The notes under the pieces were generated by a model, which saw only the letters and a list, made by a program, of their open reading frames with translations, made no database searches and was not told the DNA's origin. The translations under genes and the position numbers were made by a program. A stretch of DNA of 64,000 nucleotides from Escherichia coli (GTDB lineage Bacteria > Pseudomonadota > Gammaproteobacteria > Enterobacterales > Enterobacteriaceae), in assembly GCF_030013595.1 (NCBI RefSeq), contig NZ_CP122768.1; one strand, given 5' to 3'. Position 1 is the stretch's first letter, and the number at the start of each line of letters is the position of its first letter. Below are positions 3,161-48,724 of this stretch, in pieces.

Positions 3161-3394
3161 TCAGAGGATGGTGCCACCTTTGGTTAACTGTTCGTGGCGC
3201 GCTTCCATATCTTCTTTATGCTTGCGACCGTGATGGGCGATCGCTGTGCGCAGACGCTGCTGCTGGGTGTAGCGATCTTCCCGACTTAACTCCGCGTCAT
3301 CGCTCAGGGCGATTAATAATTCGTTCATATGGGCAATGACGCTCTCTTCAATCGCGGCATCCACGCGCGCGATGACTTCATCCAGATGCGACAT
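3161..3394 (-). CDS. ydcY: Small conserved protein YdcY (DUF2526)
   Basis: 77-aa ORF MSHLDEVIARVDAAIEESV..., matching K-12 YdcY. Confidence 0.9.
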   Translation of the reverse strand: MSHLDEVIARVDAAIEESVIAHMNELLIALSDDAELSREDRYTQQQRLRTAIAHHGRKHKEDMEARHEQLTKGGTIL

Positions 3395-3479
3395 ACTTTC
3401 TCCTTAGCCACTTGTGAAATTTATCGATTCATCCAAATGATATAAGTCTGCGTGGTGCCGTCAAGCCAGTGAGTAAGAT

Positions 3480-5375: not shown

Positions 5376-6800
5376 TTAATGTTTAACCATGACGTGGCGG
5401 ACGACGGTGTAATCCTCCAGCCCATAAAGTGACATATCCTTGCCGTAACCAGAAAGTTTCTGCCCACCGTGCGGCATTTCACTTACCAGCATGAAATGGG
5501 TATTGACCCAGGTACAACCATATTGTAGCCGTGCGCTGACGCGATGCGCCCTGCCCACATCTTTCGTCCATACCGAAGATGCAAGTCCGTACTGGCTGTC
5601 ATTCGCCCAGTTCACCATCTGTTCTTCGTTGTCGAAGAGCGTAACACTCACTACTGGACCAAATACCTCTTTTTGCACGATGGCATCATCCTGTAATGCG
5701 CCAGCCAGCAGCGTCGGCGCATAGTAATAGCCATTACCCTTGCGCTTTTCACCGCCAGTGATCACTTTGATGTGCCCTGTCGCTTTCGCCTCTTCTACCG
5801 CCTTGCTGACGCGTTCGAGATGCGCCAGCGAACTTAAAGGTCCAAGCTCCGTAGAGTCGTCATCCGGCGCACCCGATTTTAACGTTGCCACTGCAGCACC
5901 AAGTTTTTCCACCAGCGTATCGTAAATGCCTTTTTGCGCATAGATCCGACAAGCCGCTGTACAATCCTGTCCGGCATTGTAATAGCCAAAAGTACGTACA
6001 CCTTCGACCACCGCTTCAATATCCGCATCATCAAAAACTATCACTGGCGCTTTGCCACCAAGTTCCATATGAGTACGCTTTATGGACGGCGCGGTATGGC
6101 TGATGATGTGTTCCCCAGTGGCGATAGAGCCCGTCAGCGACACCATCCGCACTTTGGGATGACCGGTCAGCGGATCGCCCACCGTTTTGCCTCTGCCAAA
6201 CAGTACATTAATCACGCCAGCCGGGAAGATATCTTTCGCCAGCTCTGCCAACTTCAACGCTGTCAGCGGGGTAATTTCTGATGGTTTAAGCACTACGCAG
6301 TTCCCTGCCGCCAGCGCCGGAGCCAGTTTCCACGCAGCCATCATCAGCGGATAATTCCACGGTGCGATAGAAGCCACGACCCCCAACGGATCGCGACGGA
6401 TCATCGAAGTATGACCTTCAAGATATTCACCTGCCGCCAGACCATTCAGGCAGCGAGCTGCTCCGGCGAAAAAGCGAAAGACATCGACAATCGCCGGGAT
6501 TTCATCATTGAACGCACTATGCAGCGGTTTGCCACAGTTACGGGACTCCAGTTCGGCTAAAACCTGACCATTTTCTTCGATAACATCAGCCAGTTTCAGC
6601 AGGCATTCCGCACGCGCTTTCGGCGTGGTTTGCCCCCATTCGGCAAATGCTGCATCTGCCGCGCGAACAGCAGCATCCACCTGTTCTGCGGATGCCTCGG
6701 CAATCTCTAGTAAAACGTCCCCCGTTGCCGGATTATAGACAGGCTGTTTTTCCCCTTCGCCGCTAACCAGTTCTCCGTTAATCAGTAACTTATGTTGCAT
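5376..6800 (-). CDS. patD: Gamma-aminobutyraldehyde dehydrogenase
   Basis: 474-aa aldehyde dehydrogenase ([27 protein letters not shown]...) matching K-12 PatD/YdcW. Terminator hairpin at 5341-5368. Confidence 0.95.
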
Positions 6801-13937: not shown

Positions 13938-13977
13938 GCCCCTATCGTTATAATACACGGTAGGGGCGTTTTTGTTT
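13938..13977 (+). terminator. Strong hairpin plus T-run immediately upstream of the integrase gene (a TATAAT hexamer sits in the loop)
   Basis: GCCCCTATCG-ttataataca-CGGTAGGGGC followed by GTTTTTGTTT. Confidence 0.6.
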
Positions 13978-13986
13978 GGAAATGGT

Positions 13987-15666
13987 ATGAAAACTAAACT
14001 ATATTCGTATATTCGCTTCTCGTCTATGCGTCAGAATGATGGTTCGAGTTATGAACGGCAAATCAGGATGGCGAGAGAGGTTGCGGCAAAGTATGACCTT
14101 GAACTGGTAAATGATTATCAGGATCTGGGTGTATCTGCGTTTAAGGGTGCTAACTCTAAAACAGGGGCGCTATCTCGTTTCCTTGATGCAATTGGTAGAT
14201 CCGTTCCTGTTGGTAGCTGGCTATTCATTGAAAACTTGGACCGCTTATCCCGTGCCGATATTGTCAGTGCGCAGGAGTTATTCCTTTCAATCATCCGTAG
14301 GGGAATAACCATTGTTACTGGCATGGATAACAAGATCTACTCGCTGGATACTGTTACCGCTAATCCGATGGACCTGATGTTCTCCATCCTTCTATTCATC
14401 CGTGGTAATGAGGAAAGTCAGACTAAGCGCAATCGTACTAACTCAAGCGCATTGATTAAGATTAAAGCTCATCAAGAAAATCCCCAGAATCCGGCAGTGG
14501 CAATCGAGGAAGTTGGAAAGAATATGTGGTGGACTGATACCACATCTGGTTATGTGCTTCCTCATCCGGTCTTCTTCCCTATTGTTCAGGAAGTTGTGGA
14601 ATTACGCAGGAATGGACGGTCAACCGCCGAGATACTGGATCACCTTAACGCGACATACACACCACCACCAGCCGCAAGTCACAAGAGGCATTCAAACTGG
14701 TCACGGGCAATGATTGAAAGGTTGTTCCATACCCGCGCTTTGATTGGTATCAAGGAAATCTCTGTAGATGGCGTTAAGTATGAGTTAAAGGATTATTATC
14801 CTCGTGTGCTAGATGACGCTGAGTTTTATCACCTTAAGAAAAGCATTGGTGTTAGAGCATGTAACTATGGAGACAAGGAAGAAGTTAAACCGATCCCCCT
14901 GCTTAGTGGTGTTAATCTGCTGAAATGTGATCATTGCGGTTCCGCTATGGTTAAGGTGAAAGGAACAAACAGACGGCCTAACCAATATCGTTATTCATGC
15001 GATGCAATGCGCTCTAGTCGTATTGAATGTGTGCATACAAACTGGAGTTTTCGCGGCGACCAATTAGAGAAAGCTGTATTGCAATTGCTGGCTGATAAAA
15101 TCTGGATTGCTGAAGATAAGGCTAATCCGGTTCCGGCTTTGAAAGTACAGATTGATGAAATATCACGCAAGATTGATAACCTGATTGCCCTTTCTGCTAT
15201 GACAGGAGCAACGAAGGAGCTAGCCGATCAGATTACTACCCTCAATAGCGAGCGTGAAACACTCTACAATCAGATCAAGATGGCAGAAGAGGAAATGTAT
15301 TCTGTGGACTCTCAAGGCTGGGAGAAGCTCGCAGAATTTGATTTAGAAGATGTTTACAACGAGGATCGCATTAAGGTCCGGTTTAAGATTAAGCAAGCTC
15401 TAAAACGGATCGGGTGTAGCAGGATTGACAAGTACAAAAACTTGTTTGTACTGGAATACATCGATGGCAAGACCCAGAGAGTTGTAATAGAAAATTCAAG
15501 AGGACCGAGGAAAGGCCGGATCTTCGTTGATTTGAAGACTATCAATGATAGGCAGATTCTGGAGAGTAACGGGCTTGTTCTGCATCCATGTTTAGACATG
15601 CTGACAGATAAGAACTGGAAACCAGAAGAGGAAATACCAGGTCCATTACAGGAATTTGGAATTTAA
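13987..15666 (+). CDS. Large serine recombinase (phage integrase)
   Basis: N-terminal resolvase domain with catalytic-Ser context YSYIRFSSMRQ. Also a recombinase domain, a Cys-rich zinc ribbon (CDHCGS...YSCDAMRSSRIECVH) and a coiled coil. ATG at 13987 is preferred over the TTG at 13972. Confidence 0.85.
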   Translation: MKTKLYSYIRFSSMRQNDGSSYERQIRMAREVAAKYDLELVNDYQDLGVSAFKGANSKTGALSRFLDAIGRSVPVGSWLFIENLDRLSRADIVSAQELFLSIIRRGITIVTGMDNKIYSLDTVTANPMDLMFSILLFIRGNEESQTKRNRTNSSALIKIKAHQENPQNPAVAIEEVGKNMWWTDTTSGYVLPHPVFFPIVQEVVELRRNGRSTAEILDHLNATYTPPPAASHKRHSNWSRAMIERLFHTRALIGIKEISVDGVKYELKDYYPRVLDDAEFYHLKKSIGVRACNYGDKEEVKPIPLLSGVNLLKCDHCGSAMVKVKGTNRRPNQYRYSCDAMRSSRIECVHTNWSFRGDQLEKAVLQLLADKIWIAEDKANPVPALKVQIDEISRKIDNLIALSAMTGATKELADQITTLNSERETLYNQIKMAEEEMYSVDSQGWEKLAEFDLEDVYNEDRIKVRFKIKQALKRIGCSRIDKYKNLFVLEYIDGKTQRVVIENSRGPRKGRIFVDLKTINDRQILESNGLVLHPCLDMLTDKNWKPEEEIPGPLQEFGI

Positions 15667-15727: not shown

Positions 15728-16245
15728 AATTTAATTGCGTTAGGCAGCGTAAGCAAGTTTCATAGTAGTTTCCTCTAAAATAATAAGTTCACTACTATTT
15801 ATCAGAGAAAATTGTCTTACTATTGCATTCTCTATCTGGATGTGGGTATAGGCGGGATTGAATACGGCAAAACTGAAACATTCCACTACTGCAATAAATC
15901 ACTAAACAATATAAAGAATATTGCAAGTGTGGAGTGGAACTAATGCAAGATATTAAAATTCATTTTCAAGATTACAGTTTCGTTAAGGTTGATTGCTCTC
16001 CTTCTATCGGAATGGAATTAAGAGATTATTTCTCGTTTGAGGTTGAAGGGGCTAGGTTTAGCCCCCGTTACAAGTATTCTGGCTGGGATGGACGAATAAG
16101 ACTGTTTACGCATGAAAACACCCTACCAATTGGACTATTAAAAACGTTGGGTGTCTTCGTTAAAAATATGGGCTATTCAGTCTGGATTGACCCCAGATTG
16201 CTTGAGAAGGAAGATGTAACCAAAGACGCGATTAATGAATGGATT

Positions 16246-16254
16246 GATTCCTTA
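16246..16254. repeat. IS1 target-site duplication, left copy (GATTCCTTA)
   Basis: Identical 9-mer at 17023-17031, directly abutting both IS1 ends. Confidence 0.9.
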
Positions 16255-16309
16255 GGTGATGCTGCCAACTTACTGATTTAGTGTATGATGGTGTTTTTGA
16301 GGTGCTCCA

Positions 16310-16585
16310 GTGGCTTCTGTTTCTATCAGCTGTCCCTCCTGTTCAGCTACTGACGGGGTGGTGCGTAACGGCAAAAGCACCGCCGGACATCAGCGCTATC
16401 TCTGCTCTCACTGCCGTAAAACATGGCAACTACAGTTCACTTACGCCGCCTCTCAGCCCGGTACGCACCAGAAAATCATTGATATGGCCATGAATGGCGT
16501 CGGATGTCGCGCCAGTGCACGCATTATTGGCGTTGGCCTCAACACGATTTTCCGCCACTTAAAAAACTCAGGCCGCAGTCGGTAA
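16310..16585 (+). CDS. insA: IS1 InsA
   Basis: 91 aa, [39 protein letters not shown]... Confidence 0.95.
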
Positions 16586-17007
16586 CCTCGCGCATACAAC
16601 CGGGCAGTGATGTGATTGTCTGCGCTGAAATGGACGAACAGTGGGGCTACGTCGGTGCTAAATCACGTCAGCGCTGGCTGTTTTACGCGTATGACAGGAT
16701 GCGGAGGACGGTTGTGGCGCACGTCTTCGGTGAACGCACTCTGGCCACACTGGAGCGTCTTCTGAGCCTGCTGTCGGCCTTTGAGGTCGTGGTATGGATG
16801 ACGGATGGCTGGCCGCTGTATGAATCACGCCTGAAGGGAAAGCTGCACGTTATCAGCAAGCGTTATACTCAGCGCATTGAGCGGCATAACCTGAATCTGA
16901 GACAACATCTGGCAAGGCTGGGACGGAAGTCACTGTCGTTCTCAAAATCGGTGGAGCTGCATGACAAGGTCATCGGGCATTATCTGAACATAAAACACTA
17001 TCAGTAA
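16504..17007 (+). CDS. insB: IS1 InsB' frame (expressed as an InsAB' transposase by -1 frameshift)
   Basis: 167-aa ORF in the -1 frame relative to insA, overlapping it at AAAAAAC. Confidence 0.9.
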
Positions 17008-17022
17008 GTTGGAGTCATTACC

Positions 17023-17031
17023 GATTCCTTA
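17023..17031. repeat. IS1 target-site duplication, right copy (GATTCCTTA)
   Basis: See 16246-16254. Confidence 0.9.
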
Positions 17032-18215
17032 GAAGTGTATTCCGGTAGCAATAAAATCAATCCTTATTGGTATCAAAGGGAGGCAGTCTTTCAGGGTATC
17101 CACAATCGCCGTAGAATGCTGGTTCTTCCTACCAGTGCCGGAAAGTCATTGATTGCTTGTATGCTGTCTCGTTGGTACTTAGAGAACTACACCGGAAAAG
17201 TGTTAATCATTGTTCCGACTACATCGCTAGTGGTTCAAATGAGGGATGATTTCATCGATTATAGGCTATTCCCTTATGAAGCAATTCATACAATGATGAG
17301 TGGTAGCGGGAAACATCCGGGAGACAGGTTAATCACGGTTAGTACCTGGCAATCAGCTTGCAAGATGCCTCCTGAATGGTTCCGACAATATGGAATGTTG
17401 ATAGTTGATGAATCGCATAAGGCTAGTGCCAAAAATATTACCAATATCATCAATGGAATGAATCATTGCCAATTTAAGATCGGCATGACTGGTTCCCCGA
17501 AAGAATCAAAGTGCCATTTAATGCAGTATGTCGGGCTTTTCGGTGATATTTCTAAGATCGTGAGTATTGACCGCCTGATGGAAGAAGGGCAGGTGACAAA
17601 ACTGAAAATTAACTGTCTTTTCCTTCGTTATACAGATGAGGAATGTAGCGCGGTTAAGGGGCGAGAATATGCGGAAGAGATCAAGTATATTACGTCTAAC
17701 CCACGACGAAATAAGTTTGCTTGTAATTTGGCGCTAAAACTAGCTAAGAAGGGCGAAAACGTATTCCTGATGTTCCGCAATACTAAGCACGGAAAACTTA
17801 TGTATGATGCGTTACAGAAGGTACACGACAAGGTTTATTATATTGACGGTGGAGTTAAGACAGAAGAACGTGATGAATTTAAGAAAATGGCGGAGGGTGA
17901 CACCGGGATCATTTGCGTTGCATCCTATGGTGTGTTCTCTACTGGTGTTTCAATTAAGAATTTGCATCATGTTATTTTCGGTCATCCAGTGAAGGAATCA
18001 ACTATCGTTCGTCAGAGTATCGGTCGTGCATTGCGTAAACATGGTTCTAAGGATATTGCAACGGTCTGGGATCTTATAGATCATCTGTGTATATTCGGTC
18101 GTAACGGAAAAGTCAAGCATAAAAATTATGCGGTAAAACATGCACTTGAGAGAATCCGCTATTATCTAACCGACAAGTTCAGCTATGCAACTAAAACAAT
18201 TGCTATATAACAAAA

Positions 18216-34440: not shown

Positions 34441-34863
34441 TTAAAAACGCGCTAGATAAGAAAATTTAAGGCTAAGTGTCCCAACGATACCCCCATCACT
34501 AGAATCATCGTCATAATCGGTATTAGAAGCTACTGGAGTGATATCTGAAATTGAGAAGCCCAAATCTTTAAAACGTGGGTTATCCGGCTGAATCTGGATT
34601 ATCTGGCAAATACCCTCATGAATTTTGGTTTCATGAATCTGAGAATACAATTGCATTTCGATAACGCATTCAGCTTGCATTGCATTACCGCCACGGACCC
34701 TATTGTAAGTCTCATTCATTCCGGTGATCCAACAAACCACGTCATCACTAAAGCCTTGCTGAGTTTGTTCTACGTTTAAAGCCAGACCTAAATCTTGTTC
34801 GATAATATCCTGCAAGGCGCGTTTGATTTTCAGTCTAGGCATATTATTAACGGTAGCGAGCAT
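34441..34863 (-). CDS. Head-tail/tail completion protein, about 140 aa
   Basis: Start at MLATVNNMPRL (AGGGGG SD). Called on position between the adaptor and tube genes. Confidence 0.35.
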   Translation of the reverse strand: MLATVNNMPRLKIKRALQDIIEQDLGLALNVEQTQQGFSDDVVCWITGMNETYNRVRGGNAMQAECVIEMQLYSQIHETKIHEGICQIIQIQPDNPRFKDLGFSISDITPVASNTDYDDDSSDGGIVGTLSLKFSYLARF

Positions 34864-39427: not shown

Positions 39428-41332
39428 TTAGAACGATGTTACCCAGCTACGGCCTCTATTTGGGCGTCTGACGATGTTTTGACGTTGTGGTCGTGTGATT
39501 GGCTTAGTTTCTTCGATTTGCTCGTCAGATTGCGATTTAGGAGCTTCTACAGGTTCTTCTGGTTCACGGTTCAAACTATCTTTGATGGCTTCGAGTTTTT
39601 CCCATGACATTTTATTGAGTACATGACGAGAAGCAGCATAGGAATAAGCCAGGCAGTCCAACGCTTCGTTTCGTGTTTGTCCAACTTTTACCCAACGTGT
39701 GGTATTACCCTGCCGTTTCAACTGTTCAGAAAGCAATTGCTCGCAATAGTCATCAGGAACGTCACCAATCTGGAAGACAGTGTGAGGATCGCCATCTCTC
39801 AAGTTCCGGTTAATCATTTCACGGATCATCGTTTTAAGGTTGTTTACGCCCAGAATTTTAAGGGTAAAACCACCCGTTCTTGTGTCTTTTACCGGAAGGA
39901 TTGGTGCATCAACATTGCTTGCGCCTTTAATGGCGGTTAGATTTTGCCACCGACTACAGAATCGATAGATCACGTTTGTAGCTCGTCCGTTCGATGAGTC
40001 CACGAAAGCAGATAACATCGGGATTCGTTCACCGGATCGGGTATAGAATTTAGCTTTCAGGAAGTTGTAAAGCTGGTTATATGCTGGTGATTCGTGGCGT
40101 TCGCAGTTCACATCATAGAATGATCGGTGATCAACTACGCATAGCCCTTTACGAGAAATACCCAGCAAGGTAGATTCCAGACGGTCTTTTTGCTGGTCAA
40201 CTCCACCTACCAGAGCCAGTACATCATCAGGAATATTGTCTAGGCTAATATCAGTTTTCAGCGTTTCTAATTCGTCGGCTGTGCGGTCTTCGTTAAGATC
40301 ATCGAAGGTTTCACCGAGGACTGTATTGTAGAACGTTGCCAGGGACATATTCGCGTAGCTATCAGCAAAGTCCACCACACACGCACGGATAGAACTAAAC
40401 GGAGACATAAGGCGGTTAGCATGAAAACCGATTACTTCCGCGTTTGGTTCGGTGGCGACCCATTCTCCCTGTCCAACAGCACGTAGGCGATCACCCTCGG
40501 TCCAATCGGTTTCACATTCAGGGCAACGGTAAACGGCTGTATCTGGGTTGGGTAATGATTTACCGTTAATCGTATGCCAATCGAAATGTACGTTACTCCA
40601 TTCCATTACGTGCTTGTGTCCGCAATGCTGGCAAACGACATGATATTTTCTCTTATCCGAGAGTTCCCATTGTTGGTTAATCGCCCCATCACGAGCGGTT
40701 GGAGTGGAAGCAATTACGATCCTTGCATCTTCCCCGAAAGTGGTTGCGCGTTGTTCCGCTAGTTGGATCGGGTTCCCTTCGTCTGACTCATCAGCCGCAT
40801 CAACTTCATCAAGAATAATCAAAGGGAGTGTTTTACCGCGAAGATGTGACGGACTATTCAACGACATGAAATACATAAACGATCCGTTACGAAGCTGAAT
40901 AATCGATGAGTTGTTAACGGCATTGCGATCTGATTTGTCGGTGATCATCGCCTTTAATTCTGGTGTTGCCTCTAATACTGGCTTCACCTTACCAGCGATC
41001 CAAGAATTTAGTTCTCTAACGTTACTTTGCAACACCCCAATATTAGTAGGGTTACTCGCGATCCGATGGAAGATAATTCCGTTAAGAATCATGGTCTTAC
41101 CCAACTGTGCCGAACATTTAAACACAATTTTTCTACGGTCTTCGGTGATCGCGTCCATCATTCCACGTTGGAAGGGATGCAATTTAATTAGCGATCCGGC
41201 TTTAACACCATCGGTTGCAACTACATTAGCCTCTACCCATTCGCTAGGTTTCATCGTTTTAGGTGGGCGAATTGCCGCAGAGATATTTTTAAGAATCTTT
41301 TTTAATTTTGCCTTGTTCGAAATCAGTTTCAT
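39428..41332 (-). CDS. Terminase large subunit (lambda GpA family)
   Basis: 634 aa. Walker-A-like CSAQLGKT, DEVD Walker B and CxxC...CxxC (CQHCGH...CPECE), as in GpA-type terminases. Confidence 0.85.
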   Translation of the reverse strand: MKLISNKAKLKKILKNISAAIRPPKTMKPSEWVEANVVATDGVKAGSLIKLHPFQRGMMDAITEDRRKIVFKCSAQLGKTMILNGIIFHRIASNPTNIGVLQSNVRELNSWIAGKVKPVLEATPELKAMITDKSDRNAVNNSSIIQLRNGSFMYFMSLNSPSHLRGKTLPLIILDEVDAADESDEGNPIQLAEQRATTFGEDARIVIASTPTARDGAINQQWELSDKRKYHVVCQHCGHKHVMEWSNVHFDWHTINGKSLPNPDTAVYRCPECETDWTEGDRLRAVGQGEWVATEPNAEVIGFHANRLMSPFSSIRACVVDFADSYANMSLATFYNTVLGETFDDLNEDRTADELETLKTDISLDNIPDDVLALVGGVDQQKDRLESTLLGISRKGLCVVDHRSFYDVNCERHESPAYNQLYNFLKAKFYTRSGERIPMLSAFVDSSNGRATNVIYRFCSRWQNLTAIKGASNVDAPILPVKDTRTGGFTLKILGVNNLKTMIREMINRNLRDGDPHTVFQIGDVPDDYCEQLLSEQLKRQGNTTRWVKVGQTRNEALDCLAYSYAASRHVLNKMSWEKLEAIKDSLNREPEEPVEAPKSQSDEQIEETKPITRPQRQNIVRRPNRGRSWVTSF

Positions 41333-41423
41333 GTAATTACCCTCATTACGAAATATGAAGGTATTTATTAAATTGTTGATATTTTGATAAATATGGGTAT
41401 TAAGGCAGAGTTCTTTATGTCGG

Positions 41424-41453
41424 TTGACGATGGAGAACTTTTTCCGATAAAAT
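41424..41453 (+). promoter_or_regulatory. Sigma70-type promoter for the 41499 gene
   Basis: TTGACG, 18-bp spacer, TAAAAT. Confidence 0.5.
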
Positions 41454-41498
41454 GTAAGTCCTCTAAATAAAGGTGAACATTCACTTTAATTTGGAGAA

Positions 41499-41732
41499 AT
41501 GACTATGACTACTAAAGCTACTCGCGGTCGCCCTGCCCGTTATACTCGTGAACAGATGGCTGATATTGCCTACGCTTACTATACAGCGGATCGCGGGAAG
41601 GAAGCGAAAGAACAGATTCTTAGTGAACATGGGATTTCAGTAGCCCAATTCTATAAGAATATGAAGAAGTTAGACATTAAATTCTATGTTCAGATCGATG
41701 ACGGTCAGATCGTAGAAGCAACAGGTTTTTGA
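41499..41732 (+). CDS. Small DNA-binding protein (N-terminal RGRP AT-hook-like plus HTH), 75-77 aa
   Basis: MTMTTKATRGRPARYTREQM...GISVAQFYKNMKKLDIKF. Paralogue of 45446-45628. The true start may be the ATG at 41505. Confidence 0.6.
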   Translation: MTMTTKATRGRPARYTREQMADIAYAYYTADRGKEAKEQILSEHGISVAQFYKNMKKLDIKFYVQIDDGQIVEATGF

Positions 41733-41740
41733 TTCTCTTT

Positions 41741-41765
41741 GCCACTCTTCGGAGTGGCTTTTTTG
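41741..41765 (+). terminator. Rho-independent terminator (UUCG loop)
   Basis: GCCACTC-ttcg-GAGTGGC followed by TTTTTTG. Confidence 0.8.
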
Positions 41766-41793
41766 TATCTAAGTTATTGATTTTCTCGAACTT

Positions 41794-41836
41794 CACAATT
41801 TGTGGGAGTCGGGAAACATCCACAATTTGTGGGAGT
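41794..41836. repeat. Two direct copies of CACAATTTGTGGGAGT (27-bp period) between convergent terminators
   Basis: Copies at 41794-41809 and 41821-41836 are identical over 16 bp. Each contains the near-palindrome CACAATTTGTG. Confidence 0.8.
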
Positions 41837-41844
41837 TGGATAGT

Positions 41845-41871
41845 AAAAAGCCCCACCATTACGGCAGGGCT
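41845..41871 (-). terminator. Rho-independent terminator (module copy 3 of 3)
   Basis: Minus strand reads AGCCCTGCC-gtaat-GGTGGGGCT followed by TTTTT. Confidence 0.75.
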
Positions 41872-41876
41872 TCTAA

Positions 41877-42428
41877 TCAGATTCCGAAGATGTCACATAG
41901 GTCGGCTGTGTGGCGTTCTTGTTTTGAATAGTAAATCCGTTCAGCTTCATATAACGTGATAGAATCATCATTAACGACGGTTTCAAACTCCCCTTCTATT
42001 ACCCTTTCTGTGTGCGCTTTACTGCGTAATTCGGCCTCTTCCATGCGATATAAGCCAATACAGATACTACCATATACACCATATTTTTTCTCGTCGAGAT
42101 GGCGACGACCTTTGCGTTGTTCGAACGGAAGATCGTAAGCGGTTATCTTTTTGCGGCGAACTCGATCATATCCACTCTCTTTGGCATCAATCATCATACT
42201 AATCAACATCCCACATTTAACAAGGGATTCAAGGCACTGACGAATAGAATTAGTTCTTGATTGTTTTAATTCTGGGTTAGGATCGTAATATGGATTATCT
42301 ATCCATGATTCATGAATAAGGAAATGTACGTCATCAGCCGTTAAAGGCCAACCACCAACACTTTCAACATCGGTCTTAGTACAATCAAACAGATCCAGAA
42401 TGAATTTCTTTTTGTGCGTCATTTTCAT
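41877..42428 (-). CDS. Hypothetical protein, 183 aa (possible winged-helix DNA-binding protein)
   Basis: ORF. The SIRQCLESLVKCGMLIS segment looks like a wHTH recognition region. No firm assignment. Confidence 0.45.
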   Translation of the reverse strand: MKMTHKKKFILDLFDCTKTDVESVGGWPLTADDVHFLIHESWIDNPYYDPNPELKQSRTNSIRQCLESLVKCGMLISMMIDAKESGYDRVRRKKITAYDLPFEQRKGRRHLDEKKYGVYGSICIGLYRMEEAELRSKAHTERVIEGEFETVVNDDSITLYEAERIYYSKQERHTADLCDIFGI

Positions 42429-42523
42429 AATGTTCTATCCTCAAAATACTTAAAAAGTACCATGCCGATTTTCGCGGCATGGTCAAAAAATCACCATACA
42501 CCCAATGGGCGTTTGGTTAAAAA

Positions 42524-43363
42524 TTAGATACCAAAGACAGCAAGTGATCCGGCGTTCTTACGAATCAATGCGGCGGTATTATTAACGATTGCACGAGCAT
42601 TGTTAGGCTGCGGTAATTTCAAAGTTGCTATCGTCTCTTCCTCAATCAAGCCCAATTCAACCAGCACTGGTAAACAGTCAGTTGTGAACTCAAGCTGACC
42701 ATGTGCTGATTGTCGGGCATACATGTAAGCAGGAGGAAGAACATCATAGCCACAAGGCTTACCAGAAGCATCCAGACGGCGCTCAATGTGTTTAGCCTCA
42801 CACAATCCCTTAAGAATACGTTGTACCTTCGTAGAGCCTCGTTTTTCGCCCAATAAGCGGGTTAAGCTGTGCCCGTCAATGGCACGGCGAACATGAAGAT
42901 CAATTAATTGTTCTTTTTCTTCCGCTAAAGTCAGAGCCTTACGAATCCAATCAACTTCGGTCATCTTGCTTGCGTCTGGGAAAGCGTTATTCTTTAATTC
43001 TTCATTTTCTTTCTTCAAACGCTGCCATTCATCAACCAGCATTGCGGTATAAACCGGATCGGTCTGTGCGATAACAATGTAGCTATCACGTTCAGTCAGA
43101 AGATAAACTTCAATTGGTTTGCCTTTACGGCCTAAACGGTCAGTTTTTGACCAAAACGCCACTGGCGGTTTGGTTACAATTTGAGCTTCAACCAGACGAT
43201 CAACCGTTCTCATAATATCGGTGTGACGGTTTTCACGCCCCATTAGTTCAGCAATACGCCAGGTAGAAATTGATAATTCTTTCTCTACAGAGTCATTTGC
43301 AGCAGTCAGGTCAACAGAAGAAGCAGTTTTAACAGCAGTATTCATAGTAGTAACAGTATTCAT
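42524..43363 (-). CDS. Rha-family phage regulatory protein with C-terminal extra domain, 279 aa
   Basis: The region ISTWRIAELMGRENRHTDIMRTVDRL...IEVYLLTERDSYIVIAQ resembles the Phage_pRha domain. Confidence 0.55.
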   Translation of the reverse strand: MNTVTTMNTAVKTASSVDLTAANDSVEKELSISTWRIAELMGRENRHTDIMRTVDRLVEAQIVTKPPVAFWSKTDRLGRKGKPIEVYLLTERDSYIVIAQTDPVYTAMLVDEWQRLKKENEELKNNAFPDASKMTEVDWIRKALTLAEEKEQLIDLHVRRAIDGHSLTRLLGEKRGSTKVQRILKGLCEAKHIERRLDASGKPCGYDVLPPAYMYARQSAHGQLEFTTDCLPVLVELGLIEEETIATLKLPQPNNARAIVNNTAALIRKNAGSLAVFGI

Positions 43364-43451
43364 AGTAGTAATTCCCCTTTCGGTTTAGTGATATTGATCC
43401 TCCTAGTTCCGGCATCACCACCGGAACATTTTTATTTATGATAGAAATTTA

Positions 43452-43784
43452 TTACCAATCGATTTCTACTTGGTCTTCTTCATAATAAGGAATCGCATAT
43501 TCATAACGCCAATTTTCGATGATTTCACGTTCTTCATTAGTAAGAAGGTGATTGTTAACTGGAGTCGCATTGTGATTACCAGCTTCGAATTGCTCGCGAA
43601 CTTCCAGCATTGCATGAATACCAGTTAAGGACATCAGATCAAACGGAACATGCATACTACGGGAGATTGTTTCACGGGATACGCCCCAATCATTTTCTAC
43701 ATGGCTAGGGGTTACAGAAACGGTTTTGCCGGAGATTTTAACAGTCCAGTCATACAGGGATTTAGTGATGGTAAATTCTTTCAT
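43452..43784 (-). CDS. Hypothetical protein, 110 aa
   Basis: ORF with an AAAGAGGA SD. Confidence 0.5.
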   Translation of the reverse strand: MKEFTITKSLYDWTVKISGKTVSVTPSHVENDWGVSRETISRSMHVPFDLMSLTGIHAMLEVREQFEAGNHNATPVNNHLLTNEEREIIENWRYEYAIPYYEEDQVEIDW

Positions 43785-43807
43785 GTTACATCCTCTTTAC
43801 AAATCTA

Positions 43808-43901
43808 GGTCAAATAGGTTCAAAGTTGTCAAGTGCGATAATCATAAAAAAGTTTGAAGATATTGTCAAATACCACTTGACAAGACACCAAAGGGTTGAC
43901 C
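43808..43901. promoter_or_regulatory. Dyad-symmetric operator/promoter region built from TTGACAA/TTGTCAA and GGTCAA/TTGACC half-sites
   Basis: GGTCAA-N12-TTGTCAAG (43808-43833) is mirrored by CTTGACAA-N12-TTGACC (43876-43901). In addition, TTGTCAA-N7-TTGACAA forms a palindrome at 43863-43883. Confidence 0.55.
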
Positions 43902-43905
43902 TAAC

Positions 43906-44094
43906 TTACAGCATATCTAAGCCTTCATCGTAACCGTAGAAGCCATTCTGAGAAGAGAAGCAGATTGGTGCGTAGTCGTCGTCATCTTCGTCTTGTTCAT
44001 CTTGTTCTGGGGCTTCCTGAGCGGTTTCTTTGCCGTAGTTAAACATGGCTTCATCCAGTTCATAGTGGAAATCCTCTAAAAGAAAGTGAATCAA
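43906..44094 (-). CDS. Small very acidic protein (up to 62 aa; start uncertain)
   Basis: ORF ending ...EQDEQDEDDDDYAPICFSSQNGFYGYDEGLDML. It has a TTG start in the track, or an internal ATG at 44046. Confidence 0.4.
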   Translation of the reverse strand: MIHFLLEDFHYELDEAMFNYGKETAQEAPEQDEQDEDDDDYAPICFSSQNGFYGYDEGLDML

Positions 44095-44741
44095 TCTAAT
44101 ATTATTTATAAAGAGAAAATTCTTGTTATTATGAAAGGAGTGATCTGGTAGAGTCCAAAACTGGTCTGTACTTGAAAGGTGATTGGATTCAGTCGGGCAA
44201 AGCCCTCCTTCATGTTTTGATTAAATCATCATCAAAACGAAGAAGTATCTTTAGAATATAAGATCTTTCTTTTGGAGAAATAATAATCAGGAAGCAATTT
44301 GGCAACCGAAGGTTGCAATCCCGAAGGGATAACCAATACCTTTCTAGAAAGTGATTGTTACTCACTTCGTTCGTTTACTAGAATCAGTTATCATCTGGTA
44401 TTAAATCCCTTTCTAAGAAAATCCTTTCAAAAGTGATTCTCGATGCCACGCAGTGGCGTCGCAGACGTTTGGGAGTGAGCGAAGCGAGCGAGCAAACTAG
44501 TTAATTCCTTCTAAGACCATCTAGTATCATCTAGTTTAAATTAGTTGTTACTAGAAGCAATTGGTTGGCGCTTCGCGCAGTCGGGCTAAAGCCCTCCTAA
44601 TTATCTTTTTGGTTATTTGTTGTTTTTAGTTTTACACATGAGCGTAGCGAATGTGTTATATAATATCTATGCACGCCCAATCCCCCGCTTTTTCCCCTCA
44701 CTAAGTTAATGTTTTATAAAGAGTTTTTCTCACCAATCCTT

Positions 44742-44930
44742 TTCGGGGGCAAATTTCAGGGGCAAAAATTAGATTTTCAGGGGCAAAAATAGTGGGTTTC
44801 AGGGGCAAAAATGAGGGGCAAAATCACTGTTTCCCAGAATTTCAGGGGCAAAAATAGTGGGTTTCAGGGGCAAAAATGGGATGTGGAATCTAGGGGATTT
44901 TGGTTCAGGGGCAAAATTCAGGGGCAATTT
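44742..44930 (+). repeat. Iteron array: 9 direct copies of TTCAGGGGCAAAA (7 with a perfect TTCAGGGGCAA core)
   Basis: Copies start at 44742, 44755, 44776, 44798, 44811, 44841, 44863, 44904 and 44917. A 38-bp block at 44776-44813 is repeated exactly at 44841-44878. Confidence 0.9.
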
Positions 44931-44968
44931 TCATAGTGTAGGGCTAGTGTAGGTTTGAAAATCCTTTG

Positions 44969-44997
44969 TTGACACTGTGTAGGATCGGTGGTATACT
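44969..44997 (+). promoter_or_regulatory. Near-consensus sigma70 promoter P1
   Basis: TTGACA (44969-44974), 17-bp spacer, TATACT (44992-44997). A GTGTAGG box lies in the spacer. Confidence 0.65.
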
Positions 44998-45025
44998 TGA
45001 AAATTCGAGATAAATATGTTATAAT
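44997..45025 (+). promoter_or_regulatory. Near-consensus extended -10 promoter P2
   Basis: TTGAAA (44997-45002), 17-bp spacer with TG at 45017-45018, TATAAT (45020-45025). Confidence 0.65.
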
Positions 45026-45029
45026 ATTT

Positions 45030-45409
45030 GTATTGAAAGTGAAAATTTACCGATTTTCCTTCCTATTGTTATCACCGTGTTAAATTGTTATATGTCTGTG
45101 AAGATTTGGATCTGAGAGAAAATCTTGTAACAAATCTTTACAATTCATAGCTCAATTAATGCTCACCGCTTTAGCAAAAAGTGCTATGCCTTTTTCTAAA
45201 TTGATTGAATATACATCAATTTGGTTAAATCGTGTTCTTCGCTTTAGCAATTCGTGCTGTGGTTTAACACATTTAACACGTCTGATAACATCTGAATAAC
45301 ATTTTAACATATCTCTGTTATAAATACATATATAAGAGATAAATGTGAGGGGTTGAAAAATAAAATACAATCCCATATAAATAATAGTGAGCGGTTAACG
45401 CTCTTTTTT
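45030..45409 (+). ncRNA. Putative roughly 380-nt untranslated leader / regulatory RNA ending at a terminator
   Basis: No RBS-preceded ORF lies between the P1/P2 promoters and the terminator at 45389-45409. Contains two CGCTTTAGCA-N5-TGCT hairpin repeats. Confidence 0.3.
45389..45409 (+). terminator. Rho-independent terminator upstream of the 45446 gene
   Basis: GAGCG-gttaa-CGCTC followed by TTTTTT. Confidence 0.75.
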
Positions 45410-45445
45410 AAGAAATCATTAATCCACATTGTAGGAGGATTCGAG

Positions 45446-45628
45446 ATGGCACGACCTGTTAAGTTCACTCGCGAAATCATCTTAGAAATGGCTAAACGCT
45501 ACTTTGAGTTAACGCCGGGTGTGAGAATTGAAGAGTGGTTTAAAAATGAGGGCATCGATAAATCAACCTTTCATAAACTGCTAAAACGATATGACATTAA
45601 AGTGAAGATTGAAGCTACCGTTTGGTAA
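45446..45628 (+). CDS. Small HTH protein, 60 aa (paralogue of 41499-41732)
   Basis: MARPVKFTREIILEMAKRYF...GIDKSTFHKLLKRYDIKVKIE. AGGAGG SD 7 nt upstream. The longer track ORF start was rejected. Confidence 0.65.
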   Translation: MARPVKFTREIILEMAKRYFELTPGVRIEEWFKNEGIDKSTFHKLLKRYDIKVKIEATVW

Positions 45629-45742
45629 TCAACTTTGACTGAGAATTATATGATGGCTTTAAAAAAGAAAAAGCCTCCTTTGCTGCAACAAGGGAGGCTT
45701 GAAATGAACAATTAAAACTAACTTTCCATAGGAGTATTTATA

Positions 45743-46684
45743 ATGTTATTTTCCGCTAACTTTTTCACTAACGAAGTAACCAACGCTAAAGCAGTTATCA
45801 AATTTGGCACCGAAGCAAACAAGAAGATTCAGCCGAAAGTTGTTGCTCATGTTTCCTTTGCGCAGCAGAAATCCGCTTTCGCTGGCTTTAAAGCACATCG
45901 TGAAGCACTGATCGCGGCTGGCTTTGGTGTTGACGGTAAACTGCCTAACGGCATTCGTAAAGCAATCGACCGCGTTAAACCAGTTAAAGACGTTGCAGTA
46001 GACCACATCGTTACTTTTACCGTTAAGAACTCTTCTGAACTGTTCCACCTGGTTATTGCTGGTGATACTGCTATCGTTTCCGCTCCTAACATGGATTTTC
46101 AGGATACCGCTGATTGCCAGATCACCTTCGGTCGTCGTAAAGAAGTTACCGGAAAAGCTAAACTGAACTTCACTAAATCCGGCAATCCTTACTTTGCTGT
46201 ATTCTTTAACAGCCACGCTACCGAAAAAGAAGTTGTAGAACTGGTTGCTTATGAAGGTGAAGAGAAAGAACGTATTGAATCTTGCGAAGCATTTCTGGAA
46301 CTGGAAGCACAGGTGAATGCTGTTTCTCCGGTTGTTGAAGATCGCTTTGCTGCACTGGAAGCACAGATCGCAGAACTGAAAGCTGCACTGGAAGAAAAAG
46401 ACCAGATTATCGAAGCACAGAAAGCTGAGATTGAAGAACTGAAAGCTAAAGAAGTTGCTCCGGTGGCAGTAGTTGAAAACGCGGCTGATGAGGCCGCAAA
46501 TGATGAAGTAGAAGTGAAAATCGATGTGATGCGTGATCCGATGGCTGCACTGCAATTACTTCGTTCTTTTAAGGGCAAATCTCATTTTTCTAGTGATGTA
46601 GAAGATGAGGAAGAAGAACAGAAACGCAATGCTGCAATGCTTCATGATGAAATGTACGGTACTAACTTTTCTTACTGCCAATAA
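45743..46684 (+). CDS. Highly codon-optimised protein of unknown function with central coiled coil and acidic tail, 313 aa
   Basis: AGGAG SD. Codon usage of the highly expressed type, which generates long shadow ORFs on the opposite strand. Flanked by hairpins at 45673-45699 and 46690-46707. Confidence 0.7.
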   Translation: MLFSANFFTNEVTNAKAVIKFGTEANKKIQPKVVAHVSFAQQKSAFAGFKAHREALIAAGFGVDGKLPNGIRKAIDRVKPVKDVAVDHIVTFTVKNSSELFHLVIAGDTAIVSAPNMDFQDTADCQITFGRRKEVTGKAKLNFTKSGNPYFAVFFNSHATEKEVVELVAYEGEEKERIESCEAFLELEAQVNAVSPVVEDRFAALEAQIAELKAALEEKDQIIEAQKAEIEELKAKEVAPVAVVENAADEAANDEVEVKIDVMRDPMAALQLLRSFKGKSHFSSDVEDEEEEQKRNAAMLHDEMYGTNFSYCQ

Positions 46685-46779
46685 AAAAAGGGACTCCGAA
46701 GAGTCCCTAGTAAGTTTAGGTTAGGTTTGCACAACAAAGATGAGGTTATAATGAATATAATGCTACATTATTCTTTAAA

Positions 46780-46811
46780 GCCAGAAAAATAACCGCCCCC
46801 TTCGGGGCGGG
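46780..46811 (-). terminator. Rho-independent terminator for the 47903-46969 operon
   Basis: Minus strand reads CCGCCCC-gaag-GGGGCGG followed by TTATTTTTC. Confidence 0.7.
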
Positions 46812-46968
46812 AGGATTAATACTCAATCTATACTTGTTATGTTTTTATGTTGTATAGTCACTGACTATGAAAACACTGTACTGAATGTGTTTTATGGCTT
46901 TTAATCGGGAACTCTCTTTCGAAAATTCCCTGTTAAAACCACATAAGGAGAAAAGGCAGATTACAATA

Positions 46969-47253
46969 TTATTTAGTCTGTTTGAAAACGAACGTTAAAA
47001 ATTCGATTAAGCAATATACCCAAAGTACGGTCAGCATCAAATGCATAGCAATAGTTGGATGGAAGTTAAAAAGTGTCATACTAACTAGGCCAACAATATA
47101 AGAAATTCCTTCGACAATTAACGCAAGGCTAGCAAATGCAACAAACGCACCTAAGAATAATTCGCCTCGTTCTTTCGGTTCGGTTCCGAGTTTATAAGCA
47201 GAGATAGCAGCCAGAATAGTAATGATGACAGCATAGGTAATAAAAGTAGCCAT
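46969..47253 (-). CDS. Small polytopic membrane protein, 94 aa
   Basis: Three predicted hydrophobic helices. AAGAGGA SD. Confidence 0.6.
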   Translation of the reverse strand: MATFITYAVIITILAAISAYKLGTEPKERGELFLGAFVAFASLALIVEGISYIVGLVSMTLFNFHPTIAMHLMLTVLWVYCLIEFLTFVFKQTK

Positions 47254-47345
47254 AGTTTTATATCCTCTTAAAAGTTAAGCGGGGGATGTTCTCCCCCGTA
47301 GACGTTGACCATCAACATCTTTCATACATTTATTTATAACGCGTT

Positions 47346-47903
47346 TTAAGACACATCAAATTCATCGTCTTCTTCTGGTTCTTGTTCTTCCGGTTCATCC
47401 ATTAATGGTAATTCTTCTTCCTCGTCTTCTCCCAAATCTGCATTTTCGAACAAGTCCCCTACTTCATTTAAACGACGCTCGATGATCTCCCTTAGCTTAT
47501 TCTTTAATGTTTTCTGGTCATTGGCAGATTCGAGAATTTCTAGGGCATCGATCGTACAAATCTGCAAAATAGTCTGCTTCACTTTCCCGCAATATTCCGC
47601 TAGTTGCTGTTCTACATAACCGACAGGAATCAGGAGGTTCATTTTTTCCTGATTCTCTCGTTCGGCTGCATCTGCCATTGCTCTTTCTCTGCGGAGACGT
47701 TCTTGATCAATCGCTTCTTTGATTGAAGTTTGTTTAAGTGGGTTAATTACGTTCTTTAGCACCCAATCGCAACCTTCCTTTGCCGGAACACGCCTCTTAT
47801 TGGTATTGTAAGGTAGTCCCCTTTCTAACCATCGCTTACCGCCACCATTCAATGTATAGCCATATAAACGGGAAATTTCTGTAAGGGTTAATTCTTCTTT
47901 CAT
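47346..47903 (-). CDS. Nu1-like terminase small subunit candidate (N-terminal wHTH, central coiled coil, acidic tail), 185 aa
   Basis: The N-terminus LTLTEISRLYGYTLNGGGKRWLERGLP and the ERLRRERAMADAAERENQEKMNLLIPV segment resemble Nu1/TerS architecture. The gene is not adjacent to the large subunit. Confidence 0.45.
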   Translation of the reverse strand: MKEELTLTEISRLYGYTLNGGGKRWLERGLPYNTNKRRVPAKEGCDWVLKNVINPLKQTSIKEAIDQERLRRERAMADAAERENQEKMNLLIPVGYVEQQLAEYCGKVKQTILQICTIDALEILESANDQKTLKNKLREIIERRLNEVGDLFENADLGEDEEEELPLMDEPEEQEPEEDDEFDVS

Positions 47904-48350
47904 TGGTTATCCTCCATTAAATTTGCGTAATTTTATTTATTGGTTTTACGCAAAATCTAAGCGCCTAAATCGCATTCTAACGAAGGGAAAGATCCAGTAA
48001 TGGTAAGGGCTAGGAAGTGGGTTAATAGTCGCGTAGCGACCGCGCTAGGACTGCACTGATCACGTTTTAAAATCTCACACGCACATCAAAAACCGGGGTG
48101 CCGAAAACTCGCTTTATCTGACCCCGATCCAGAACCTAAATCATTTGTCAAGTCTTTCCGATTCAGTAAAGGGGAACATGCATCTAAGCTAGAGAAGCTC
48201 ATAAAGACTAAGTATGAATGCGGTGTTGTTAGTCGGGATGATATGCGAGACGGTTACACTGAAACGCTACCATTTGAAGCATTGCCGGAGATCATCACTA
48301 TCACCAACAAAATGATAAGCGAAAGCATCCTCGTAAGTAATTGATTCCTA

Positions 48351-48378
48351 AGCCCTGTCCTTGTGATGGGGCTTTTTT
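48351..48378 (+). terminator. Possible plus-strand terminator just inside attR
   Basis: AGCCCT...GGGGCT followed by TTTTTT. Confidence 0.45.
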
Positions 48379-48394
48379 ATTGGAAAAATTTTAG

Positions 48395-48724
48395 TTATTG
48401 GGGTTTACAACATTTAGGTTTGCCAATTCGTCTGGCTAACTCTTGCTGAGTGATTTCTGACTGTAAAAAAGCATTTAACAGCAATACCTTAGAGGCGACA
48501 CTCAAAGGCACTTCAATAAAGTGATCGTGACTATTTAATGGCGAAGGTAACGGGATAAGCTCGTTATCTTCAAAATAAAAATCAAATGCGGTCAGTAAAG
48601 CATCTTTTGCCGCTTCCATCGCTTCAGCAACTGTTTCGCCCTGGGTCAACGCTTCAGGGATATCCACAAAAGAAACCATATAACCGCCTTCCGGCGCGGG
48701 TGTAAGAGTGACGGGATAACGCAT
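48395..48724 (-). pseudogene. hicB: 5' part of hicB fused to 5 phage-derived codons (HicB residues 1-104 plus CCKPQ-stop)
   Basis: MRYPVTLTPAPEGGYMVSFVDIPEAL...ELARRIGKPK, then CCKPQ and TAA at 48395-48397. The HTH recognition helix and C-terminus are missing. Confidence 0.85.
48413..48421. repeat. attR core TTTAGGTTT
   Basis: See attL. hicB sequence resumes at 48413. Confidence 0.85.

Follow-up and report, generated by a model that had tools for sequence, protein, structure and literature searches.

A cassette-exchanged repeat array and its putative binding protein in the early region of an Escherichia coli prophage lineage

Which protein reads a conspicuous array of short direct repeats in the early region of an Escherichia coli prophage, and what purpose does the array serve? 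The array lies in a 64-kb stretch of chromosome (contig NZ_CP122768.1 of assembly GCF_030013595.1, 64,000 nucleotides; here called the window), within a 1.25-kb noncoding gap of a 36-kb prophage, of which it is the sole substantial noncoding repeat array. The prophage lineage is common, yet neither a repressor nor a replication gene is annotated in its early region. The original prediction, made from the letters of the window, took the repeats for an iteron-like protein-binding array of an origin, a centromere, or a regulator and proposed five candidate binding proteins. In this study, we followed the array through related prophages and found that it is conserved, varies in copy number, and is replaced as a cassette together with one protein gene, which encodes 313 amino acids (aa). 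To that extent the prediction held, whereas the choice among origin, centromere, and regulator is one that sequence does not settle, and we weigh the readings below.

The repeat array and the protein gene exchanged with it

The array consists of nine same-strand sites matching TTCAGGGGCAA, which start at 44742, 44755, 44776, 44798, 44811, 44841, 44863, 44904, and 44917. The original prediction had all nine starts and the seven perfect copies right; the copy at 44742 (TTCGGGGGCAA) departs from the motif by one mismatch and that at 44811 (ATGAGGGGCAA) by two. Dinucleotide shuffles of the window contained 0.02 exact matches on average, none of 100 shuffles reached seven, and no exact copy lies elsewhere in the window. 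The sites are in direct orientation throughout, at successive spacings of 13, 21, 22, 13, 30, 22, 41, and 13 bp, and six of the nine fall within ~2 to 3 bp of one helical phase. The exact higher-order duplication that had been reported is real and measures 39 nucleotides rather than 38 (44775-44813 is identical to 44840-44878). Within the window, the array motifs are confined to this locus, with no sites at the late, int, or small-terminase (TerS) promoters.

A search of related phages for the iteron and its neighboring genes, which had been proposed along with the prediction, gave a comparison set of 34 distinct module versions (72 loci) from E. coli, Salmonella, and Edwardsiella. Classes were defined among relatives whose large terminase (TerL) proteins are 94 to 99% identical (Table 1). 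Class A, the type found in the window, is represented by 20 distinct arrays from E. coli genomes and IMG/VR contigs, comprising 175 units; these arrays have a common layout with 6 to 14 copies, and that of strain UTME-9, for example, contains a duplicated block of 107 bp. Over the 175 units, the core GGGGCAA departs from invariance only by a C-to-A change at one position in two of them, while the bases between sites vary. Across the 34 modules, the class of the array is perfectly associated with the N-terminal domain (N-domain) of the protein encoded in the 313-aa position, and this association extends over five specificity classes and three genera.

Table 1. Repeat arrays and the proteins encoded in the 313-aa position of related prophages
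Class or relative	Protein in the 313-aa position	Array
Class A (window type)	313-aa protein, encoded after the 60-aa helix-turn-helix protein HTH-60	6-14 copies of TTCAGGGGCAA
Class B	328-341-aa protein with an unrelated N-domain	6-9 copies of (A)GTGTAGG (AGTGTAGG), no GGGGCAA
Class C	333-aa protein	at least 14 copies of CGGGGAN
Class A' (L197)	N-domain 50% identical to that of class A	only the core AGGGGCAAAAA is kept
Edwardsiella (L199)	N-domain 28% identical to that of class A	~11 copies of TTCRRATGCTAC; 13-bp pair and 21-bp spacing kept
Salmonella (L204, class A-like)	N-domain 76% identical	TTCAGGGGCAAAA sites; five of six spacings match the class A layout
Salmonella class B-like prophages	N-domain 70-80% identical	10-11 (T)AGTGTAGG sites

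The boundaries of the exchanged DNA are informative. In blastn maps, prophages of different classes differ by two nonhomologous cassettes, one made up of the array with ~300 bp to its left and the other of the whole open reading frame (ORF) in the 313-aa position. The ~860 bp of homologous DNA between the cassettes, consisting of a spacer and the HTH-60 gene, assorts independently of both. Each of two comparisons, L018 (class A) with L162 (class B) and L162 with L171 (class C), shows two nonhomologous blocks separated by DNA that is 82 to 83% identical. Between L002 (class A) and L162, the HTH-60 segment is 97.4% identical, and one type of spacer (spacer type 2) is shared by classes A, B, and C. 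The match between array and protein is thus kept across DNA that has itself been exchanged, which argues for functional coupling rather than mere physical linkage. The array is a real, functionally constrained feature, and its joint replacement with the protein among related prophages makes the 313-aa protein its likely partner. We conclude from this co-variation that the array is very probably a multisite DNA target of the 313-aa protein.

The 313-aa protein has an N-domain (approximately residues 1 to 170), a coiled coil (approximately residues 182 to 236), an acidic linker, and a short conserved C-terminal tail, as judged from modeled secondary structure. This plan, with an N-domain of ~170 aa, a long predicted coiled-coil helix, an acidic linker, and a short C-terminal segment, is common to all classes. 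The C-terminal segment of classes A and B reads …LHD..Y.TN.S, and most alleles outside class A end in -AA, an ending that we take to resemble a ClpXP-type C-terminal degron. The class A and class B N-domains are unrelated (hhalign probability, 0.3%). Searches of Pfam, NCBIfam, PHROG, and the PDB gave no match for the 313-aa protein, which belongs to a tiny family, as judged from a library of 1.8 billion representative proteins. In a chimeric relative, P0131, an ORF6N domain (Pfam, 1.2e-20) takes the place of the N-domain and is joined to the class A coiled coil and tail. P0131 falls in PHROG "anti-repressor" families; it alone has a Pfam match to ORF6N, KilA-N, or Bro-N, with none for classes A, B, C, and A' or the Edwardsiella protein. 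ORF6N domains are predicted to bind DNA. The N-domain position therefore looks like a swappable module that an ORF6N-like domain can occupy, and the presence of ORF6N there in P0131 supports the N-domain as the DNA-reading module.

Among the five binders proposed in the original prediction, the 313-aa protein co-varies with the array and the other four do not. HTH-60 was rejected as the specificity partner, being identical in L002 and L162, which carry arrays of different classes; its structure was modeled with AlphaFold2 at a predicted local distance difference test score (pLDDT) of 73, and its nearest folds are helix-turn-helix (HTH) domains of the Fis/NtrC/Mor type at nonsignificant E-values. 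A 183-aa protein is absent from most relatives that retain the array, and the N-domain of the Rha protein varies independently of it. We also rejected a 150-aa protein with an acidic C terminus, which is conserved from class to class and present in the window only in truncated form, as well as the TerS-like protein, which is conserved across classes A, B, and C while their arrays differ.

Further repeats lie in and around the array locus. Class A loci with spacer type 1, the type present in the window, contain one to three copies of AGTGTAGG, and those with spacer type 2 contain none. At the place equivalent to the degenerate inverted copy to the left of the window's array (Table 2), the class A' relative L197 has an inverted CAGGGGCAAAT copy. 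The left half of the noncoding gap (44400-44560 in the window, with equivalents in L162 and L197) holds several motifs resembling TTCTAGAA or TTCTAAGA and recurrent short GC-rich hairpins of the form CAGTCGG-hairpin-CTCC. Most relatives, though not the window, have an isolated TTCAGGGGCAAAA copy 2.4 kb from the array, between the convergent genes for a 75-aa protein and Rha (L002:3791, L003:3548, L004:3641, L163, L168, L169, and L171). We rejected it as a looping partner of the array, since class B and C phages retain it and the window has none; it is probably a nonfunctional relic. Class C prophage L171 (coordinates on the reverse complement) encodes a second 333-aa ORF after the first (5579-6580), ending in -LVA, and carries a second small repeat, TGTAGGTATATTGGT, in two to three copies at 3340-3395, to the left of its CGGGGAN array; the two may form a second protein/site pair.

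Table 2. Features of the prophage in the window
Feature	Coordinates	Strand	Remarks
Large serine recombinase	13972-15666		
Large terminase (TerL), lambda gpA type	39428-41332	-	
Class-specific left part of the array cassette	44440-44741		Short GC-rich hairpin-like elements; in blastn, interclass homology ends ~300 bp left of the array
Degenerate inverted copy, TGAGGGGAAAAA	44689-44700	-	~40 bp left of the array; 92% complementary to 44812-44823
Class A iteron array, nine head-to-tail TTCAGGGGCAA(AA)	44742-44929	+	Unit 11-13 bp; seven exact copies; layout kept in 20 distinct class A arrays
Two AGTGTAGG copies (starts 44935 and 44946)	44935-44953	+	Between array and promoter; motif forms the entire array in class B relatives
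Two overlapping sigma-70-like promoters (predicted)	44969-44997 (TTGACA-17-TATACT); 44997-45025 (TTGAAA-17-TATAAT)	+	Directed away from the array; 11 of 12 consensus matches each
Intrinsic-terminator-like hairpin and T-run	45389-45410	+	Just 5' of the HTH-60 ribosome-binding site; would close a ~400-nucleotide leader
HTH-60, three-helix HTH protein	45446-45628	+	Opens the rightward operon; its four alleles are distributed freely between classes A and B
313-aa protein, putative array binder	45743-46684	+	Co-varies with the array; 0.8 kb downstream of it
Nu1-like small terminase (TerS-like)	47346-47903		

A possible replication origin and competing readings

The DNA to the right of the array contains the two promoters announced by the original prediction, at least as promoter-like sites (Table 2). 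The adjacent stretch is AT rich, as had also been said, although "very" overstated the case: 44998-45150 is 73% A+T, compared with 58% for the prophage overall. AT-rich DNA flanks the array in every spacer type, and a 40-mer with an A+T content of at least 80% lies directly against it in spacer type 2. A consensus scan of both strands found no promoter-like site overlapping the array. Depending on the relative, the distance from array to rightward promoter is 40 bp, ~190 bp, or 1.5 kb, the array of the Edwardsiella prophage lying 1.5 kb from HTH-60, and more than 450 bp separate the array from the leftward gene. The conserved phage core encodes no helicase, loader, or primase and offers no other candidate initiator or origin. 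GC skew was set aside as origin evidence because it simply tracks gene orientation.

Our best explanation, which we hold tentatively, is that the array and the 313-aa protein could form a phage replication origin with its initiator. Physical binding, oligomerization, and origin function are what we infer from the patterns of conservation and exchange, as follows. Each 11- to 13-bp site would be read by one class-specific N-domain, and since the sites are asymmetric and arranged head to tail, all subunits would face the same way on the DNA. Once bound, they would be joined in pairs or bundles by the central coiled coil, giving a single large nucleoprotein complex that marks the origin. The 313-aa protein would be an O-like, non-ATPase initiator, produced from the early rightward operon of HTH-60 and the 313-aa gene, that loads onto the array and distorts the AT-rich DNA beside it, and initiation would lean on transcription from the two neighboring promoters and on host replication proteins. 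Compared with an operator, an origin-recognition complex like that of lambda O or the iteron Rep proteins is the better fit because the sites form one locus that overlaps no predicted promoter, because copy number and distances vary, because AT-rich DNA is adjacent, and because the core holds no other origin candidate.

Several observations weigh against a replication origin. The 313-aa protein matches no initiator family (Rep_3, Phage_rep_O, DnaD-like, or RepL), and its AlphaFold2 model is poor (pLDDT 57), with no fold match. The evidence for DnaA boxes is weak, consisting of one relaxed-consensus box, TTTTACACA, at 44630-44638, 104 bp left of the array and present in class A only, and there is no consensus site for integration host factor. 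Class B and C sites are short (7 to 8 bp) and 8 to 15 bp apart, which places them nearer to Cox/Apl or ParR-type arrays than to plasmid iterons. Immunity regions, too, are typically exchanged as cassettes between near-identical phages, and the phage yielded no CI-like repressor. Finally, the window prophage itself looks degraded, as detailed below.

Much of this evidence bears on the reading that comes next in probability, a somewhat unlikely one, in which the array is the multisite operator of an oligomeric lysis-lysogeny regulator like Mu c at O1-O3, P2 Cox, or 186 Apl, and the cassettes are heteroimmunity types. The exchange of array and protein between phages otherwise 94 to 99% identical, the position of the array between divergent early operons, and the lack of a recognizable CI-like repressor anywhere in the phage would all be accounted for, as would the -AA ends of many alleles and the place of P0131 among anti-repressor families. 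In the Mu repressor, a DNA-binding domain at the N terminus is followed by a coiled coil and a C-terminal tail, a layout that the 313-aa protein would share. Binding of direct repeats by a phage regulator is documented for P2 C and 186 Apl (PMC2995052 and PMC7498355). The lack of promoter overlap on either strand, the changing distances to the flanking genes, the variation from 6 to 14 copies, and the absence of further sites at the late, int, and TerS promoters speak against such a regulator, and a palindrome over the -35 element in spacer type 2 (see below) could be the real operator. In E. coli BS74R-D, two class A prophages of this family reside at different attachment sites, ycdX and hicB (L205 and L206); their 313-aa and HTH-60 proteins are identical and the surrounding DNA is only 87 to 94% identical, and up to four further genomes have two class A places each. 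This is a weak argument against an immunity determinant, as what is observed is coresidence and not superinfection. Rather less probable is some other local nucleoprotein role. The array could, for example, titrate an anti-repressor-like protein or set a threshold for its action, insulate the divergent operons from each other, or act like an enhancer in late or middle activation. The well-supported pairing of protein and array agrees with such a role, the protein architecture resembles that of Ant/Bro/KilA-type modular phage proteins, whose functions are mostly unknown, and a conserved terminator gating the operon suggests elaborate early regulation, but no feature singles out any one of these functions, and none explains why specificity has diversified into at least five classes.

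The remaining readings are far less likely. A plasmid-type centromere like R1 parC with ParR, or a terminase recognition site like lambda cosB, is very improbable. Dense direct repeats with some 13-bp pairs do resemble parC-type arrays, but the operon consists of HTH-60 and the 313-aa protein, the module has no ParM- or ParA-type NTPase, and all copies found are chromosomal, with no plasmid matches, so that the centromere suggested in the original prediction has become a weak proposition. A terminase of the lambda gpA type with a Nu1-like TerS does need a recognition site; the TerS-like protein, however, is constant over three classes with different arrays, the array is 3 kb from the TerS gene, and better cos candidates exist upstream of that gene. 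There, 47921-48045 contains an inverted repeat (TTTGCGTAA ... TTACGCAAA) and a GC-rich palindrome (GTCGCGTAGCGAC, ~48030-48042), which are candidates for the cosB- and cosN-like elements of a gpA-type terminase. Least credible of all is a nonfunctional, minisatellite-like repeat hitchhiking with its neighboring gene. The copy number does shift by unit duplication and deletion, as such a repeat would, but a core near-invariant over 175 units beside variable inter-site spacers, the occupation of the same position by arrays of different motifs in every class, and a linkage to the protein allele that survives recombination in the intervening DNA all oppose it.

Co-variation with the array gives the unannotated 313-aa protein a probable partner DNA target and points to at least three unrelated, putative DNA-recognition domains that no domain library covers; five natural protein/site pairs are available for direct testing. 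Should the replication origin be confirmed, the system would be a minimal way of starting phage replication; should immunity prove to be its function, it would be the missing repressor system of this lineage. It is possible, although we would put this below the origin itself, that the 313-aa protein belongs with its counterparts in classes B, C, and D to an undescribed family of phage origin-binding initiators with interchangeable N-domains, a coiled coil, and possibly a protease-target tail, which would replicate the phage with only host proteins and local transcription. Nature would then already offer at least five orthogonal protein/site specificities, in a widespread enterobacterial prophage lineage.

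The prophage, its early transcripts, and its relatives

The prophage (~12.4 to 48.3 kb of the window) is inserted in the 3' end of hicB in the E. coli chromosome. Its lysis, tail, and head genes form one minus-strand block that ends at the gpA-type TerL gene, and the small early region sits between the two terminase genes. There, the gap containing the array separates divergent early operons: the leftward genes encode a Rha/Ant-like protein, small ORFs, and, in relatives, the 150-aa acidic protein, and the rightward genes encode HTH-60 followed by the 313-aa protein. In searches of Pfam, NCBIfam, PHROG, and the PDB, no early-region protein matched a replication initiator, loader, helicase, primase, ParA/ParB, or CI-type repressor; the statement in the original prediction that no initiator, loader, or primase is recognizable in the prophage is thus borne out by domain-library searches. 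A gene for a T4 UvsW-like helicase (15934-18210), split by IS1 (~16280-17030), is cargo with no counterpart in relatives, and since it is missing from the related UTME-9 prophage, which has other cargo there, we regard it as accessory. ARAGORN reported a 91-nucleotide tRNA-Gln (anticodon TTG) at 34586-34676 on the plus strand, inside the minus-strand structural block, which its unusual length makes doubtful.

Comparison of 41332-44400 with L002 showed that a conserved gene for a 200-aa double-HTH protein is mostly deleted from the window prophage and that its 150-aa acidic-tail gene has lost the N-terminal two thirds, while most relatives do not have the 183-aa gene of the window. Together with the IS1 insertion in the cargo, these losses suggest that the window prophage may be defective, and intact relatives are better experimental material.

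Transcription from the two predicted promoters to the terminator-like hairpin would yield a noncoding leader of ~400 nucleotides (45004-45410), inside which a 29-nucleotide direct repeat occurs at 45160-45188 and 45233-45261. A hairpin with a T-run occupies the terminator position in all classes, with differing loops or stems (L162, L171, L197, L198, and L199), and the stem of the Edwardsiella terminator (L199) is wholly different in sequence. A leader and terminator placed before HTH-60 suggest that the operon is controlled by attenuation or antitermination, or that the leader RNA is itself functional; a search of 41000-48500 found no Rfam RNA family. Between the terminator and the HTH-60 ribosome-binding site lies TAATCCACA (45421-45429), one mismatch from the DnaA-box consensus TTATCCACA, and of eight representatives scanned, covering classes A, A', B, and C, five have this DnaA-like box in the same place. 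In spacer type 2 (L162, ~4852-4839 on the minus strand; L171, L030, and L197), the -35 element of the main rightward promoter falls within the palindrome TTGAC-N4-GTCAA, a plausible operator candidate for a dimeric HTH protein. The window, with its spacer type 1, does not have this palindrome.

The region is present in 56 of 5,426 complete E. coli genomes, with relatives in Salmonella and Edwardsiella, and one version of the 313-aa protein occurs on at least 1,000 contigs. No close isolated phage was found, the best portal match being 37% identical. Searches of phage and plasmid collections with the region (megablast) and of phages with the 313-aa protein (tblastn) gave no match, every copy found was chromosomal, and our literature search found nothing on this prophage or protein. 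A relaxed pair scan (TCAGGGGCAA, a gap of 3 to 12, TCAGGGGCAA) of genome contigs returned, among the matches listed, unrelated tandem repeats in distant taxa, mostly spaced in multiples of three as in coding repeats; in viral contigs, it returned only the same prophage family and two unrelated coding-like tandem repeats (L033 and L038). Two relatives have acquired neighbors of separate interest. In E. coli PE15, a composite transposon, ISApl1-mcr-1-PAP2-ISApl1, directly follows the 313-aa gene (L004 8540-12319), and in Edwardsiella tarda, a 543-aa protein with RVT_1 and TIR domains adjoins the TerS-like gene (L199 9413-11044) and is likely to be defense-type cargo.

Comparison with known systems

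Mu c at O1-O3, P2 Cox, and 186 Apl are oligomerizing regulators whose ~6 to 9 repeated binding sites lie between early promoters that diverge or face each other. As in this lineage, phages that are nearly identical carry exchangeable cassettes, heteroimmune ones in their case, and the order of DNA-binding domain, coiled coil, and C-terminal tail is similar. The Mu, P2, and 186 sites overlap the promoters that they control and have a fixed geometry, whereas no predicted promoter overlaps the array described here, its distance and copy number vary, and the proteins have no sequence similarity. The ORF6N, KilA-N, and Bro-N "anti-repressor-like" proteins have the same modular plan, which P0131 illustrates by swapping in ORF6N, but the class A, B, and C N-domains match none of those Pfam domains, and we know of no member of that group with a defined cognate multicopy array.

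The origin and crr region of satellite phage P4 contain type I octamer repeats bound by the alpha protein, a primase-helicase. Short multicopy repeats and a distant second site are common to both systems, the latter represented here by the isolated TTCAGGGGCAAAA copy of most relatives. In P4, the repeats are origin-recognition sites with a second distant cluster, whereas the isolated copy in this lineage is also kept by class B and C phages and is probably without function. Unlike alpha, the 313-aa protein has no NTPase or primase motif.

Iteron plasmids such as pSC101, P1, F, and R6K offer a parallel in their DNA, with direct repeats 21 to 22 bp apart (about two helical turns), an adjacent AT-rich region, and a nearby inverted copy. 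The initiator gene, putative in our case, lies beside the array, and reliance on host replication proteins, which we propose here, is a further likeness. The present system differs in that the 313-aa protein is not a Rep_3 or winged-helix initiator by sequence, the sites are shorter, 13-bp pairs occur, sites in classes B and C are packed 8 to 15 bp apart, the DnaA boxes are unconvincing, and the element is an integrating phage.

The origin and O protein of lambda resemble the module in other respects. O is an early-operon protein of ~300 aa encoded after a small HTH gene, an N-terminal domain of ~160 to 170 aa sets its DNA specificity, as the N-domain would do here, and several repeats lie beside AT-rich DNA close to strong early promoters, which in the window are predicted. 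In lambdoid phages, too, specificity differs between close relatives, with the N-domain and the repeats changing together. Lambda has four 19-bp inverted-repeat iterons inside the O gene, whereas the arrays described here have 6 to 14 asymmetric direct sites of 11 to 13 bp located 0.8 kb upstream of the gene; and unlike O, the 313-aa protein has no Phage_rep_O match and no P-like or DnaB/DnaC-like partner and contains a long coiled coil. Taken together, the module appears to be of a known kind, a repeat array with its cognate binding protein, and to be new in that it is built from domains that no library describes.

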